DNA from: Patescibacteria group bacterium
Lineage (GTDB): Bacteria > Patescibacteriota > Patescibacteriia > UBA9934
Assembly: GCA_041666205.1 (NCBI GenBank)
Contig: JBAYHI010000005.1
Coordinates: 20,386-84,385, forward strand
Direction: 5' to 3'
DNA length: 64,000 nt
Shown here: piece after piece, positions 1 through 8,929 of the stretch
Position numbering within the stretch: position 1 is the first letter of the stretch
Layout: each line of letters starts with the position of its first letter
Translations under genes and position numbers: made by a program
The notes under the pieces: model-generated
What the model was told of the DNA's origin: nothing
Databases searched by the model: none
The model's input: the letters and a program-made list of their open reading frames with translations, nothing else

Positions 1-550
1 GTATTTCTTTTTTACTTTTGACGGTAAGAATAGCTTGAGCTAATTCTAAAATTGCGTCACCCTCGTTCTTCCCAACCAGTTCCTTGATCATTCCTTCAAA
101 TTCATAACCAGTTTTTTGGAAATCTCGCATTAAATGAACCCACCTCTCATCTCGAATTTTTGCTGTAAGCGTCTTGATTTGTTCAGCCGGCAATGAATTA
201 ATAATTTGAAGAAAACGATCCACGACTTCCGGATTAAAATTTGCTTGAGATATCGAAACGGAGGCAATAATCTCTGTAACTTTTTGTGGATTCTTTTCTG
301 CCATTCGAGTCAAATACTCGAGCTCAGACATACGATACGAATATCGCATTGGGTCTTCTGCTTTATTTTTTATCTCATCCAAAAATCCTTCTTGCCAAAG
401 CCAGCCAAGCCAAGACTCATCTGCTAGTGAAAAGAAAAATCGTTTAGCGTCTTCATTCACCTGTAGACTTTGTGCGACAAAAACATCAGCGCAGTCAGTA
501 CCGGCTGCGAAAAATTCGCCTATTCTTTTATGTAATTCAAGCTGGCTCAT
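1..550 (-). CDS. hypothetical helical protein; start codon (ATG) at 550, C-terminus cut by the window edge; fourth gene of the MazG/DUF2075/CHAT operon
   Basis: Open frame on minus strand from ATG at 550 to window start (MSQLELHKRIGEFFAAG...). Start lies 1 nt after the CHAT gene stop (552-554), indicating tight coupling. No recognisable motif. Not in supplied ORF track because it has no stop inside the window. Confidence 0.45.
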   Translation of the reverse strand, partial: MSQLELHKRIGEFFAAGTDCADVFVAQSLQVNEDAKRFFFSLADESWLGWLWQEGFLDEIKNKAEDPMRYSYRMSELEYLTRMAEKNPQKVTEIIASVSISQANFNPEVVDRFLQIINSLPAEQIKTLTAKIRDERWVHLMRDFQKTGYEFEGMIKELVGKNEGDAILELAQAILTVKSKKEI

Positions 551-551
551 A

Positions 552-1601
552 TTAAGCATTCATAAATAAAATCGGAACGTAATCTTTATCCGCTTGAGGA
601 TTATCATAATACCTTCTCAGTGATTCCTTATAAACTTCTTCCAACCTTTCGAAGTCTTTTCCGGACACCAAAGATTCATAAAATAATTTAGCAAAGATAC
701 CTGCAGAATCTTCTCCGACTCCATATCTGTAACCAATCGCATATCGCGCAATCCCCTTGCTGACGATTTCAAAAGCCAAACTACTCTTATTCACGGCACC
801 TCCACCAGAATAGCAGGAGGAAACAAAAAACAACAAAAATTTTTTGCCTTGAAGAATGTGGATAATCTCCCAATCTTCCAAAATATCTACTTCATTATAT
901 TGATTAATGTCGGATGCCTCTAAACAAAAACCGCCCCCCTCGTCCCCATGCATCATGATGTGGACGATATTATAATCATCCCAGGCTAAAGCGCCGAATT
1001 TTTCTATCGTTGTGTGTTTCGATATCGATATGTTACTTATATGCAATTGTTTGGGAAGCGCCTCTAAAGCATATTTAACTATATCGATGATCTCAATGAT
1101 TATTTTATTTTTGAGATCTTTCAATTTTTCCGTTCGGCGTTCATTGGAATAGGAGGCTACTAATAATAAACTATTGCTGCTGGGCGGATCTAATCTCTCT
1201 CCTGTAACAACTTTTCTCAAAACAAAAATTCTTTTTGCGGATATCTTTTCCCATGGGAGCTCTAGAAAATCACTAAAACCTGACTCGATTATCAGTTCAC
1301 TGCCATCCCCGAAATCAGAGTCACTCAAAGATATTCGTTCAGCTACAAAACTTACAACGCTTTGAAGATTTGGTCCGAGATTTTTTTCAGTAATATTTTC
1401 ATTGCTCATTCCGTTGCCAGCCCCAGGATTGGTAAGCCGTACCCCCGCAGTTCTCTTTGCCTGAGCACAGCGTCCATCGAATTCAGAAAACAATATGGGA
1501 ACTGGATCGCCTTCGTTGCAACCCACAAATAAGTATTGCCCCACAGGCAATTGTTCCCCGTTGTTTTCTTTCATGTCTTTTAGTTCACAAAAAATCTTCA
1601 T
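552..1601 (-). CDS. CHAT-domain (caspase-like Cys/His) protease
   Basis: C-terminal ~220 aa show caspase/CHAT dyad context: ...VHIMMHGDEGGG (His) and ...FFVSSCYSGGG (Cys in SxCxSG). N-terminal ~130 aa are unrelated/unknown. AT-rich coding sequence. Confidence 0.7.
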   Translation of the reverse strand: MKIFCELKDMKENNGEQLPVGQYLFVGCNEGDPVPILFSEFDGRCAQAKRTAGVRLTNPGAGNGMSNENITEKNLGPNLQSVVSFVAERISLSDSDFGDGSELIIESGFSDFLELPWEKISAKRIFVLRKVVTGERLDPPSSNSLLLVASYSNERRTEKLKDLKNKIIIEIIDIVKYALEALPKQLHISNISISKHTTIEKFGALAWDDYNIVHIMMHGDEGGGFCLEASDINQYNEVDILEDWEIIHILQGKKFLLFFVSSCYSGGGAVNKSSLAFEIVSKGIARYAIGYRYGVGEDSAGIFAKLFYESLVSGKDFERLEEVYKESLRRYYDNPQADKDYVPILFMNA

Positions 1602-1646: not shown

Positions 1647-3548
1647 TTACGATATATCTTCCTCCCACGTCCCATTCGCATCAATACGACTTCTGAAAAA
1701 CTTTTCTGTTTCTTTATTCACAAAGTACACATAACAACCTTTCATCCCCCGCGTCAATAAGATTCGATAGGTGTTTTTCAACAGCTCGACAAATTGATCT
1801 TTTGATCTCCGAACAACCGTATCAAATGAATGTTCTGGTCGTGCAATCCAATTTTGCTTCTCAAAATCGTAAACCAAATCTTCACCGATAATGACACCAA
1901 CATAATCAAACTCAAATCCCTGAGCCGTATACACGCAACCAATTTGATTTACGCCTTGCGGATCGTGTGCCCATAATGATGCTTTTGGAATTCCGGCCAC
2001 CAATCTTCTTGAATCTGTCTTTGCATTCCACGGACGTTGATAATCTCCGATAACGACATCGTCGACTAACGCGCCCTCATTCGTCGCACTAGACCAAGGC
2101 CAGCAAAACCCTGCTGTCAAACGTGCCGTGTTTCCATGTTCAGCTTTTTCTTTTATGGCTTGTTCCAGAGCCTCCGGCGTGTCGAAAATTTTAAATTCAA
2201 AACCGTCATTTTGGTCCCAAATAGGATTTGCCGTACGTTTGATTCCCAACGTGTTATTGACCCAATTGATAAAGGCGTCCGAGCCATTGCATCGAAATTG
2301 CGCCTCAAGTTCATACTCTAAAACCTCACGGCCTTTTTCTTTTGCGTATTCACGAATGTAGGAAACCGACCCGATCTCATTTGGTCGCACGATTTGATTG
2401 TCGTCGATGAAAAATACGGCAAGTTTCGATGCATCTAATAATTCTTCAATTTGGAGTTTGTTTGAGGTTTTATCTTTCCGTGTAAATCGATTATTGCTCG
2501 TTTTTCGTATTCGATGTGCTTCATCACAAATTAGCACATCAATGTCGCCGGGACCGGCCGAAGCATAACTATTGAAATATTTGAATTGTACCGAGCCACG
2601 CGTTCCAATAATTTTTCTTAGTGTCTCGGTAAATGCTTTTGACCCCGTGGCGTAATGTGCATTTTTCCCCTCAGCTAATAGATCTGCCATTAAATTTAGT
2701 GCAATAACAGATTTCCCCGTGCCAGGACCACCGCGAACAATTAATATTTTACGTCCGTCGCTCGTATCAAGTCCTCGACGTGCTAACGCCATCACCTTAT
2801 CAAAAACGATACGCTGTTCATCGAGCAAAACATATTCTGATTTTCCTTTGATAACTGAAGAGATGTGATCGAGTAATTTCCGACTTGGTTTATATTTCCC
2901 ATTATCAATTTTACTCATGACCGATTCCCCGTTTCCGCGCTCCAAACCCTGCAATAAATATGCACAAAGTTCATCTACTTTTTCTGCTGTAAAAACTGGG
3001 TATTTATCGACGAGGTTGGAGAATTTTGGTGAGAACAACTCATCATTGCTCACCGGATTATAGTTGTGCAAATAACTACACGCTTCCAGACGTACCGGCT
3101 GTGGTCCTTCATAAAAAGTCGTGTGCGTATCTGCAAGATATTCTTTGTACCCGCCAACTTGCGCTGAAGGATGAAGAACCTCGCGCTTCGCACCACCTAC
3201 CCACGTTAAGACTTCATTTTCTCCGTCGGCTTGTTCGGTTTTCTCCCACTGCTTGAGCTCGATGATCATTGCCGTATCTTGAGCGTTTGTATCGACTCCG
3301 CAGATAATGCAATCAAGACGTTTTGACGTTAAAGGCAATTGATATTCCAAAAGGATACCGTGATCAATAAGATCTGCATGCTGAAAAACTTGAGACAATG
3401 CGCGCAACGAATTTCTCCAAGATGTAACCTCAGCTGGCGAAGGATAATAACGAAAATGTGAAAAAAATGCATCGCGAAGAAGATCAGCAATGCGATTTTG
3501 AATATTATCGAGGATAAATTCTTTCGAGGTACCTGAATAGAGTCGCAT
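1647..3548 (-). CDS. DUF2075-type protein: N-terminal PD-(D/E)xK nuclease-like domain fused to SF1 helicase-like P-loop ATPase (Schlafen/Nhi-like architecture)
   Basis: N-terminus has D...ELK nuclease motif (RLDCIICGVD...IIELKQW). Walker A GGPGTGKS, Walker B/DEAH box LICDEAHRI. C-terminal LLTRGMKGCYVYF motif typical of the DUF2075/UvrD_C_2-like tail. 633 aa. Confidence 0.7.
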   Translation of the reverse strand: MRLYSGTSKEFILDNIQNRIADLLRDAFFSHFRYYPSPAEVTSWRNSLRALSQVFQHADLIDHGILLEYQLPLTSKRLDCIICGVDTNAQDTAMIIELKQWEKTEQADGENEVLTWVGGAKREVLHPSAQVGGYKEYLADTHTTFYEGPQPVRLEACSYLHNYNPVSNDELFSPKFSNLVDKYPVFTAEKVDELCAYLLQGLERGNGESVMSKIDNGKYKPSRKLLDHISSVIKGKSEYVLLDEQRIVFDKVMALARRGLDTSDGRKILIVRGGPGTGKSVIALNLMADLLAEGKNAHYATGSKAFTETLRKIIGTRGSVQFKYFNSYASAGPGDIDVLICDEAHRIRKTSNNRFTRKDKTSNKLQIEELLDASKLAVFFIDDNQIVRPNEIGSVSYIREYAKEKGREVLEYELEAQFRCNGSDAFINWVNNTLGIKRTANPIWDQNDGFEFKIFDTPEALEQAIKEKAEHGNTARLTAGFCWPWSSATNEGALVDDVVIGDYQRPWNAKTDSRRLVAGIPKASLWAHDPQGVNQIGCVYTAQGFEFDYVGVIIGEDLVYDFEKQNWIARPEHSFDTVVRRSKDQFVELLKNTYRILLTRGMKGCYVYFVNKETEKFFRSRIDANGTWEEDIS

Positions 3549-3550
3549 AA

Positions 3551-3898
3551 CTAGAGTTTATTGTATTTCGTGTGTTTCCCTTTTGCTTTTTCGATCGGGT
3601 ATTTTTCTTCGTTTTTTTTCAATTTTTTCTCTACCGCTTTCAGAAGATCAATTTTCAAATCATGGCTCATTAATAAAACCCAATACAAAACATCCGCGAG
3701 CTCATCTGCGATATGTTCTTTATCGCTTTTCACATAATCCTCAATTTCTTTTGGATTTTTCCATTGGAAATGTTCCATCACTTCTCCCGCCTCCAAAACC
3801 AAAGAAATCGACAAATCTTTTGGGTTATGAAATTGCCTCCAGTCTCTTGCATCTCGAAATGCAATGATCTTTTTTGTGATCTTTTTTATGTCATCCAT
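3551..3898 (-). CDS. MazG-like nucleotide pyrophosphohydrolase (small all-alpha NTP-PPase)
   Basis: 115 aa; EAGEVMEHFQW (E-x-x-E metal site) and ELADVLYWVLLMSHDL motifs typical of MazG/HisE-superfamily NTP pyrophosphatases. Stop is 2 nt from the DUF2075 start. Confidence 0.7.
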   Translation of the reverse strand: MDDIKKITKKIIAFRDARDWRQFHNPKDLSISLVLEAGEVMEHFQWKNPKEIEDYVKSDKEHIADELADVLYWVLLMSHDLKIDLLKAVEKKLKKNEEKYPIEKAKGKHTKYNKL

Positions 3899-3992
3899 AC
3901 CGTCCCATTCTCCCCCCTTTTCCCTCTTTCTTCAATCCCTCCCCAAAATCAAAAATCCCCCGCCGGGGCGAGGGGAAAAAAACCAGAGGAAT

Positions 3993-4186: not shown

Positions 4187-4753
4187 TTATTCCACAAACA
4201 ATTCATCTTCTTCCCATTTTCGTGGGTTCTCCATAATATAGGTGCGGATATTGCTGAGGGATTTCTCATCACGAACAATGTGTTCATAATAATTCCGTTG
4301 CCAAACCGCGCCACCGGTATTCCCTCGAATAACATTCGCGCGTTTTGTGACCGCGGATTTGAATCCGGCAACAAACGATCCAATCGATTGCGATTTGGGA
4401 CCAGATCGATGTCCTGTAGGGGCGACCGGCCGGTCGCCCCTACGAAAACAAATATCGTCCGTACGAAAAACATCATTTCCACGGTTGATAACCGTAATCA
4501 CATGGATATGATTTGGCATAATCACCAAAGAATCCAATTCGATTTCGGATCGAATTTCGAGGGTCTTCAATAATTCATCATGAACAATATTCCCAAATTG
4601 ATTTAGACGAATAATTCCATGTTCAATTGCACCAAACAAACATTCACGATCCTTTGTGCAAATCGTGAGAAAATATGCGCCATCCTCAGAATAATCGTAT
4701 CCTTGCAGACGAATGGAACGACGGTGCAATCGTGGAAATTTATTAATCGGCAT
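4187..4753 (-). CDS. IS200/IS605-like Y1 (HUH) transposase, REP-associated tyrosine transposase (RAYT)-like
   Basis: HUH motif in VIMPNHIHVITV; C-terminal AVWQRNYYEHIVRDEKSLSNIRTYIMENPRKW with catalytic-Tyr context typical of this family; 188 aa. A REP-like GTAG palindrome is embedded in-frame (see repeat 4416-4443). Confidence 0.7.
   Translation of the reverse strand: MPINKFPRLHRRSIRLQGYDYSEDGAYFLTICTKDRECLFGAIEHGIIRLNQFGNIVHDELLKTLEIRSEIELDSLVIMPNHIHVITVINRGNDVFRTDDICFRRGDRPVAPTGHRSGPKSQSIGSFVAGFKSAVTKRANVIRGNTGGAVWQRNYYEHIVRDEKSLSNIRTYIMENPRKWEEDELFVE
4416..4443. repeat. REP-like palindrome gtaggggcgaccggccggtcgcccctac (GTAG-ended) lying inside the RAYT coding sequence
   Basis: Perfect 28-bp inverted repeat; same GTAGGGGC...GCCCCTAC design as hairpins at 5649, 5699, 5983 and 53537. 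Confidence 0.6.
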
Positions 4754-4772: not shown

Positions 4773-5126
4773 TTACTCGTAAATCGGCGGGGACCAAGCC
4801 AACCAGATTATAAGATCTGTAATCAATAGCAATCCAACCAACGCCAGATCCCAAAATCCCACCCATTTTTTCTCTGCAATCTCTGGAAAGAATTTTCCAA
4901 AATAGATGTAGTACAAAATCCGTCGAATGAGTTGCGCGCCAAGAAGGACGCCAACGATTCTTGGAATAGCCGTGAGTGGATAATATCCCCAAAAAATAAA
5001 TCCAACGTCACGCCACGTGAATAAAAGAATAAAAACCGTGGGAACCAAAATGCACACAAAGTAAAGCACGCGCAAAAGGCGATACCATACGATTTCTTTT
5101 GCACGTAAAAGTGTTTTTGTTTGCAT
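4773..5126 (-). CDS. hypothetical small membrane protein (3 predicted TM segments)
   Basis: Hydrophobic stretches ILVPTVFILLF / VGVLLGAQLI / LALVGLLLITDLIIWLAW; no identifiable motif; chosen over overlapping alternative frames. Confidence 0.4.
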   Translation of the reverse strand: MQTKTLLRAKEIVWYRLLRVLYFVCILVPTVFILLFTWRDVGFIFWGYYPLTAIPRIVGVLLGAQLIRRILYYIYFGKFFPEIAEKKWVGFWDLALVGLLLITDLIIWLAWSPPIYE

Positions 5127-8531: not shown

Positions 8532-8683
8532 CCCTTCGCTCCTTCGGAGCTACGGGTGGCAGGCCATCCTTGTTCAACGAACGACGGATGACAGGCCATC
8601 CTGCCACACTCGGAATCGGCGAAGGGTGCCCTTCCGAAGCTCTGTTCATACAGAGCGAAGGAGGGCGCGAACTCGACGCAACT

Positions 8684-8929
8684 ATGTTTTTTGTGTACAT
8701 CATCCAAAGTATCAATTTTTCTGATAAACGATACACGGGTTTTACTGAATGTATCGAATCAAGGATTGATGAACATAATCGTGGCAAATCGCCACACACA
8801 AAAAAATTCAAACCATGGAAACTAATCTACTATTCAGCGTTTGCAGAAAAAAAGAAAGCATTAGACTTCGAAAAATATTTAAAGTCTGCATCAGGATCTG
8901 CATTCAGAAATAAAAGACTGCTCTCATAA
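8684..8929 (+). CDS. small GIY-YIG nuclease superfamily protein (YhbQ/UPF0213-like)
   Basis: MFFVYIIQS...KRYTGFTE fits the GIY...YIG-type motif pair, followed by R..EH and KPWKLIYYSAFAEKKKALDFEKYLKS. The supplied longer ORF (8570) includes a structured, probably non-coding leader, so start set at ATG 8684. Confidence 0.6.
   Translation: MFFVYIIQSINFSDKRYTGFTECIESRIDEHNRGKSPHTKKFKPWKLIYYSAFAEKKKALDFEKYLKSASGSAFRNKRLLS

Follow-up and report, generated by a model that had tools for sequence, protein, structure and literature searches.

The stretch of DNA analyzed here, called the window in what follows, comprises 64,000 nucleotides of contig JBAYHI010000005.1 from a Patescibacteria group bacterium (assembly GCA_041666205.1, positions 20,386 to 84,385 of the forward strand), and all coordinates are counted from its first letter. 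Close to its left end, on the minus strand, lies an uninterrupted ATG-to-stop open reading frame (ORF) of 633 amino acids (1647..3548) that, by its match to PF09848 and by its homologues, encodes a helicase fused to an N-terminal nuclease-like domain, and that we refer to as the nuclease-helicase gene. It is the second gene of a two-gene unit, the first of which (3551..3898, minus strand) encodes a 115-residue MazG-like nucleoside triphosphate pyrophosphohydrolase of the all-alpha, DCTPP1 type; the ATG of the nuclease-helicase gene is found only 2 nucleotides past the MazG stop codon (junction TAG-tt-ATG). The identical 633-residue protein is encoded on the 288-kb source contig, annotated as part of a Patescibacteria metagenome-assembled genome, and in a second independent assembly. 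The original prediction for this gene, made from the letters alone, had quoted four motif strings, RLDCII and IIELKQW for a PD-(D/E)xK nuclease and GGPGTGKS and LICDEAHRI for a helicase, and all four are present in the intact frame at residues 77-82, 95-101, 273-280 and 339-347, respectively.

More than 7,500 homologues of the nuclease-helicase were found. Each of the best 120, which come from many phyla and from archaea, is 63-67% identical to the window protein over its full length, and a search with the N-terminal 262 residues alone retrieved 1,927 cluster representatives, with nearly all matches beginning at target residue 1 and the full-length ones sharing the overall architecture. Conservation was quantified in a set of 54 full-length representatives, 26-55% identical to the window protein. 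In the nuclease half E68, R77, D79, E97, K99, Q100, W101, H126, P127, Q130, Y134 and H161 are 98-100% conserved, as are Q245, G276, G278, K279, D342, E343, H345, Q385, Q417, R419 and R600 in the helicase part, with values of 96% for R476, Q543 and G544 and of 98% for E546. Because the catalytic positions are near-invariant in the 54 relatives, both halves are under purifying selection at those positions. The view that both halves look catalytically competent and that the protein is no decayed pseudo-enzyme is thus upheld, as judged from the sequence, by 96-100% conservation of the catalytic residues. An NCBIfam scan returned no informative family for the helicase protein, and a whole-protein sequence search against PDB sequences gave nothing useful.

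The N-terminal domain (residues 1-262; 2763..3548, minus strand) is modeled as two leading helices, a PD-(D/E)xK-like alpha-beta-beta-beta-alpha-beta core and a helical linker, and this region is confident in both structure models, with predicted local distance difference test (pLDDT) values of 85-95. In the models E68 (3345-3347), which precedes the core motifs in the protein, lies in strand 64-70, D79 opens strand 77-85 and E97-x-K99 closes strand 91-99, and Q130xxxY134 (3147-3161), which follows the core motifs, falls within helix 127-141, after which comes strand 153-160. This alpha-beta-beta-beta-alpha-beta order of elements points to the topology of a PD-(D/E)xK nuclease. The core motifs, from D79 of RLDCII to E97-L-K99 of IIELKQW (3252..3314, minus strand), are 100% conserved in the 54 relatives, in which E68 and Q130xxxY134 likewise stand out by their conservation; the QxxxY motif is known from RecB-like nucleases. 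Plausible structural neighbors of the N-terminal model are all PD-(D/E)xK proteins, namely VC1899, Kpn2I, Cdn1, NgoMIV, Can2, PfoI, Upx, Cap4, NucC, Card1, LlaBIII and McrC. A Foldseek search of the model against the PDB gave no significant match (best E 0.026), the top non-significant ones being nucleases (EcoT38I, Cap4, EndoMS and MUS81). Residues 1-265 matched no Pfam family, even at an E value of 10, and neither PDDEXK nor Cas4, and the N-terminal profile found nothing useful among PDB sequences. The D...(D/E)xK plus QxxxY pattern is invariant; the structural neighbors belong to restriction-endonuclease-fold families other than RecB/Cas4 and no family model matches. We assign the domain to the PD-(D/E)xK nucleases with modest confidence in the fold, the evidence from sequence and models being remote. 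Neither a non-nuclease fold nor a lack of conservation at the key residues, the two outcomes named beforehand as speaking against a nuclease, was seen in the models, in the 54 relatives or in the profile match to Nhi described below.

The helicase core (residues 266-609; 1722..2753, minus strand) matches model positions 1-352 of 354 of PF09848, scoring 307.1 bits (cut-off 24; E 2.3e-91), and Foldseek agrees with this assignment. PF09848 is DUF2075, now named SLFN-g3_helicase, the Schlafen group 3 DNA/RNA helicase domain. Walker A (GGPGTGKS, residues 273-280; 2709..2732, minus strand) contains G276, G278 and K279, each 100% conserved, and Walker B, or motif II (D342-E343-A-H345; 2514..2525, minus strand), is conserved at 98-100%. 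The full set of superfamily 1 (SF1) motifs, Q and I to VI, can be located at Q245, G273-S280, D342-H345, D382-Q385, Q417/R419, T541-D548 and R600, with 96-100% conservation. When the full-length AlphaFold model (mean pLDDT 76.5) was compared with the PDB using Foldseek, the top match was SLFN11 (7zel_A, E 1.1e-13), followed by RecD2 (5e-11), Dda (3e-9), RecD of RecBCD (5e-9) and Dna2 (2e-7), with SLFN14, Ighmbp2 and Upf1 also among the matches; DEAH/RHA proteins rank much lower, and motifs III (DDxQ), V and VI are of the SF1 type. The motor is thus assigned, from sequence and model, to the SF1B helicases (Dda/RecD2/Upf1/Schlafen-like) and not to the SF2 DEAH/RHA class, despite the letters DEAH in motif II. 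Of the earlier description of the protein as carrying DEAH-box motifs, then, the intact motif II that reads DEAH remains and the class name does not, the structural matches being SF1B. The core also contains an insertion (residues ~480-545; window ~1914..2111, minus strand) with invariant C482, W483, W485, W507, W526 and C538. It is modeled poorly (pLDDT <50 for residues 496-545), and this Trp/Cys insertion could be a substrate- or base-recognition element.

The MazG-like protein matches PF12643 with 65.5 bits (cut-off 27) and retains an intact EXXE...EXXD metal-binding motif (E36, E39, E66 and D69) that is conserved in six orthologues. Its nearest solved relatives are the pyrophosphatase 4qgp (E 2e-18) and mouse/human DCTPP1 (E 9e-18). 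With DCTPP1 (RS21-C6) it shares the all-alpha MazG fold family and the EXXE...EXXD motif, but it is a stand-alone prokaryotic protein of 115 residues that is operonic with the nuclease-helicase. On grounds of sequence its substrates are most likely dCTP-type or modified deoxynucleoside triphosphates (dNTPs). Upstream of its gene a G+C-rich hairpin followed by a T run (3957..3974, minus strand), terminator-like by consensus match only, probably delimits the MazG-helicase transcription unit on its 5' side.

We sampled the neighborhoods of 85 loci of relatives, taken from metagenomes and species-representative genomes. In 40 of them the helicase gene is immediately preceded, on its own strand, by a MazG-like ORF, and 52 have such an ORF no more than 4.5 kb away; when only relatives at least 55% identical to the window protein are counted, an immediately preceding MazG-like ORF is seen in 19 of 24. 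The median gap between the two genes is 3 nucleotides. In five annotated homologue loci (an archaeal-looking contig, a DarTG contig, an integrase/AbiEii island, an RloB/AAA_21 locus and a CRISPR-Cas locus) the MazG-like gene is directly upstream in 5/5, often with a 4-nucleotide overlap. All-against-all clustering of the neighboring ORFs in the 85 loci produced no recurrent partner besides MazG, and a hidden MazG-like ORF sought upstream of the homologue from a Nitrososphaerales archaeon was not found. MazG is, on this comparison, a frequent and not an obligatory partner in bacteria and archaea, because it is absent from the Nitrososphaerales locus and from most actinomycete loci. Some of the loci without MazG, in Streptomyces-type genomes (L065, L068 and other actinomycete loci), hold two paralogous nuclease-DUF2075 genes side by side, and a Hymenobacter plasmid (L093, 3904-7890) carries two tandem nuclease-DUF2075 copies beside a DNA methyltransferase, again without MazG; such side-by-side copies suggest an alternative heteromeric or duplicated arrangement. 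In the searched literature, which omits much subscription content, we found no paper on the pair, nor any that treats DUF2075 or Nhi together with MazG.

A second recurrent feature of the family is a C-terminal Peptidase_S24 domain of the LexA/UmuD type, present in 67 of the 120 closest homologues, which are then ~790-820 amino acids long (S24-bearing homologues occur among P0002-P0120, for example at L003 8001-10409 and L005 8001-10415). Of these 67, 57 have retained all the S24 motifs, namely an A-[A/C]-G site, a GxSMxP serine and a [YF]T[VI]K lysine. Neither the long nor the short forms are closer to the window protein, and MazG is found upstream of both. The window nuclease-helicase is a short form that has no S24 domain, and the 45-nucleotide spacer that follows its gene contains no S24 remnant. 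The 57 relatives with intact motifs have the same cleavage-site and Ser/Lys motifs as the S24 domains of LexA and UmuD; unlike in LexA, the domain is fused C-terminally to a nuclease-helicase and not to a DNA-binding repressor domain, and its cleavage is predicted.

The closest characterized counterpart is Nhi (SERP2475) of Staphylococcus epidermidis, in which nuclease cutting of motor-exposed DNA has been demonstrated biochemically (bioRxiv 10.1101/776245). Alignment with hhalign of our 54-sequence family profile against an Nhi profile built from 11 sequences that accompany the paper of Bari et al. (bioRxiv 10.1101/776245) gave a match at 98.5% (E 2.5e-15, 441 columns) in which D79 pairs with D72 of Nhi, E97-L-K99 with E85-L-K87 and T277-K279 with T213-G214-K215. 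The substitutions D72A/E85A and T213A/G214A/K215A abolished Nhi immunity (bioRxiv 10.1101/776245). Diverse profiles were needed on both sides, as with a low-diversity alignment (A2) against a single Nhi sequence hhalign aligned only the P-loop. The PADLOC Nhi and AbiO models match at E values of the order of 1e-15 to 1e-16 over only the first half of the helicase, so that the protein does not qualify as a full-length member of the Nhi model, its match being confined to residues 236-472 (E 6.4e-15). The resemblance to the architecture of Nhi, named in the original prediction, is nevertheless real: the paper of Bari et al. and the profile-profile alignment both show one polypeptide in which an N-terminal PD-(D/E)xK nuclease is followed by a DUF2075 SF1B helicase, and the two proteins share a defense-island context. 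The window family is unlike Nhi in having an additional beta-hairpin inserted near residues 100-125 and an invariant E68 and Q130xxxY134, in being without a Glyas_Bleomycin-R tail, and in its conserved MazG partner and frequent S24 fusions, whereas Nhi stands alone.

Similar considerations apply to Nhi-like of Bacillus cereus FSL H8-0482, an experimentally verified anti-phage protein cloned as a single gene, which phages escape by loss of a DNA methylase (bioRxiv 10.1101/2022.05.11.491447); this mode of escape hints at modification-dependent targeting. Nhi-like has the same two domains, and hhalign aligns it to residues 41-409 at 96% (E 2.6e-9) with the E, D and ExK motifs in register, but by BLASTP the likeness amounts to 25% identity in the helicase half only. 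Two carriers of our family that are in the Millman data set, Herbidospora yilanensis NBRC 106371 and Halalkalicoccus jeotgali B3, are not in the Nhi-like (SG141) table. As far as sequence comparison can tell, the nuclease-helicase is a remote member of the Nhi superfamily, outside the published Nhi and Nhi-like families. The likeness to Schlafens that had also been proposed holds for the helicase half, given the name of PF09848 and SLFN11 as top Foldseek match, and fails for the N-terminal half, in which Pfam finds no Schlafen-core (AlbA_2) domain; the group III proteins SLFN11 and SLFN14 have in common with the window protein the helicase domain family, a nuclease-plus-SF1-helicase layout and an antiviral theme. 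Dna2 and RecD2/Dda share the SF1B fold, and Dna2 in addition the order of an N-terminal RecB-like PD-(D/E)xK nuclease and a C-terminal SF1B helicase. The identity is 12%, however, and the window gene is without an Fe-S cluster motif, sporadic and island-borne, with no sign of a replication role.

The setting of the gene pair in the window is that of a small island. The first 5 kb have a G+C content of 0.39-0.42, as against 0.47-0.50 further in, and this low-G+C stretch, which lies between housekeeping genes and large pilin-like genes, holds the MazG-helicase pair, a CHAT-like gene with a large Dsr1-like neighbor (discussed below) and a REP-associated tyrosine transposase (RAYT) of the IS200-like Y1 type (4187..4753, minus strand), the last bordering the MazG-helicase unit on its upstream side and lying where the stretch gives way to higher G+C. 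A hydrophobic ORF of 117 amino acids with no family match (4773..5126, minus strand) is situated between the YqeY and RAYT genes, and a stand-alone GIY-YIG domain protein (8570..8929, plus strand) appears in the annotation of the source contig. Among the neighbors of homologues in the five annotated loci are DarTG, AbiEii, RloB/AAA_21, CRISPR-Cas, Fic, HipA, NERD, HsdR_N, integrases and transposases, so that, by gene content, the annotated loci examined lie in defense or mobile islands.

The distribution of the family is patchy. It extends over bacteria and archaea (many phyla and several archaeal lineages) at 60-67% identity, with at least 291 confirmed relatives in 185,579 species genomes, a lower bound because it counts only those among the first 600 pattern matches. 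Full-length copies occur in 33 plasmid records, mostly non-mobilizable large replicons. Viral carriage is rare: a search of 50,697 phage records gave 4 carriers, and one of 2.9 million viral contigs gave 5 full-length loci. On these figures we rejected a phage origin as the main habitat. One 22-kb record deposited as a phage, that of Microcystis phage Mwe-JY31 (PP438423.1; L094, 4657-6863), does hold a MazG-like plus nuclease-helicase pair, in which the MazG-like protein is recognized by a hidden Markov model at E 1e-42 and the helicase is 35% identical to that of the window.

Taken together, we favor, with a probability of about 60%, the reading that 1647..3898 (minus strand) is a two-gene, horizontally mobile defense-island module in which a DCTPP1-like MazG is tightly coupled to a nuclease-helicase of the Nhi superfamily. 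The reading builds on the intact conserved motifs, the fold class, the remote homology to Nhi and Nhi-like, the conserved linkage to MazG and the island context documented above; the anti-phage role is one that we infer, and what DNA is attacked, what MazG hydrolyzes and whether the two proteins form a complex are conditional parts of the mechanism that we propose. In this mechanism the SF1B motor, with its Q-motif glutamine Q245, Walker A lysine K279, DEAH at 342-345 and arginine finger R600, would bind foreign DNA, most likely at ends, single-stranded regions or replication intermediates, and ATP would drive translocation and unwinding. The N-terminal PD-(D/E)xK domain, through E68, D79, E97, K99, Q130 and Y134, would cut the DNA that the motor exposes. 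The MazG partner would act on the nucleotide pool, most likely by hydrolyzing dCTP-type or modified dNTPs, and phage replication would be starved or, alternatively, nucleotides from degraded (modified) phage DNA would be kept out of host DNA; the nuclease-helicase would then work together with, or be made safe by, the pyrophosphatase. In the S24-tailed relatives control may be exerted by self-cleavage at the Ala-Gly site with the Ser/Lys dyad, plausibly stimulated by RecA on single-stranded DNA. A link to modified DNA is attractive, if conjectural, because abnormal cytosine-derived triphosphates are sanitized by DCTPP1 (PMC13510388) and because phages escape Nhi-like through methylase loss.

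Several points weigh against this module being a defense system of the kind proposed. About 40% of the loci, most actinomycete loci included, are without MazG; the substrate of MazG is deduced solely from similarity to DCTPP1, and other MazG enzymes hydrolyze (p)ppGpp; and PADLOC has no model for the MazG protein or for the pair. In addition, an identity of ~65% between phyla is unusually high for a defense gene and would fit a repair enzyme too.

This last point leads to the main rival, namely that the protein is a Dna2/AddAB-style enzyme of DNA repair, recombination or replication rescue to which MazG contributes dNTP sanitation, with the S24 forms wired into the SOS response in the manner of UmuD. 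It is favored by the 63-67% identity across phyla and domains, by the presence of Dna2 among the structural matches, by the SOS linkage of LexA/UmuD-type S24 domains, by the standing of DCTPP1/MazG as classical house-cleaning enzymes (PMC13510388), and by repair-gene neighbors such as a UmuD-like S24 protein with a Y-family polymerase (L006), ERCC4 (L008) and HhH-GPD (L001). We nonetheless consider it unlikely: the distribution is sporadic, the genes occupy islands of low G+C content that also hold transposases, integrases, toxin-antitoxin, restriction-modification and CRISPR genes, plasmid copies and tandem paralogues occur, and the nearest characterized relatives, Nhi and Nhi-like, are immune proteins. 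A selfish role, in the replication or maintenance of a plasmid, integrative and conjugative element or satellite, or in counter-defense, with MazG depleting alarmones or signaling nucleotides as does the phage enzyme Atd1, appears to us quite improbable. The adjacent integrases and transposases, the plasmid records and the Mwe-JY31 pair are what one would expect of it, and Atd1, which is MazG-like, is indeed an anti-defense enzyme; mobile elements commonly carry defense systems too, however, the plasmid matches are mostly to the non-mobilizable large replicons noted above, no replication-initiator features were seen, and viral carriage is as rare as the counts above indicate.

There remains the suggestion of the original prediction that the neighboring CHAT protease possibly gates an ATP-dependent nuclease. 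The CHAT-like gene (552..1601, minus strand; 349 amino acids) begins 45 nucleotides downstream of the nuclease-helicase gene and in the same orientation, the interval holds no terminator-like site, and its product, which matches the Pfam CHAT model below the cut-off (18.3 bits versus 24), has an invariant His218-Gly and Cys263 dyad. The allegiance of this gene is to the other side, however. It overlaps by 8 nucleotides, and is thereby translationally coupled to, a downstream gene of 980 amino acids, which continues past the left edge of the window (the pair occupying 1..1601, minus strand, and beyond). Within its product, residues 466-811 align with the C-terminal part of the Dsr1 model in PADLOC (E 1.5e-20). 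The pair recurs in two other contigs beside restriction-modification genes (for example L091, 11948-15932), where the large protein is 59% identical to the 980-residue one, as far as DNA is available, and no DUF2075 gene is present on either contig. A collection of 5.8 billion proteins contains just 5 homologues of the CHAT-like protein, in contrast to the thousands found for the helicase, and none of the 85 other nuclease-helicase loci has a CHAT-like neighbor. Comparative genomics thus effectively refutes the gating, to which we now assign hardly any probability. The conserved partner on the upstream side, MazG, had been overlooked in the original prediction. The CHAT-like and Dsr1-like genes are, from their co-occurrence, a separate and rare two-gene module, a candidate defense system in which a caspase-like effector would replace the SIR2 domain of Dsr1.

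Returning to the MazG-helicase module, the intact motifs alone are ordinary, and it is the pairing with MazG and the S24 fusions that carry the interest. Nhi-type nuclease-helicases are known as single-gene immune proteins, and their helicase corresponds, in prokaryotes, to that of human Schlafen; what is new with respect to the searched literature is a conserved dCTP-pyrophosphatase-like partner and, in about half of the close relatives, a LexA-like tail. We put forward only tentatively, and hold to be somewhat doubtful, the wider proposal that the pair is an undescribed two-component immune system of bacteria and archaea that combines control of the nucleotide pool with the ATP-driven breakdown of foreign DNA, which may carry modified bases. 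The DCTPP1-type enzyme would remove modified or excess dCTP-type nucleotides as the nuclease-helicase degrades the DNA, and LexA-like self-cleavage in response to RecA on single-stranded DNA would arm about half of the members. Were this so, the S24-tailed half would have an SOS-type trigger built directly into an effector. If the pair is a defense system, it would tie sanitation of the dNTP pool to the breakdown of DNA and would serve as a simple model of how host DNA is spared by a nuclease-helicase. The window also contains a small defense island in a genome of the Patescibacteria (candidate phyla radiation, CPR), a group whose immunity is poorly known.

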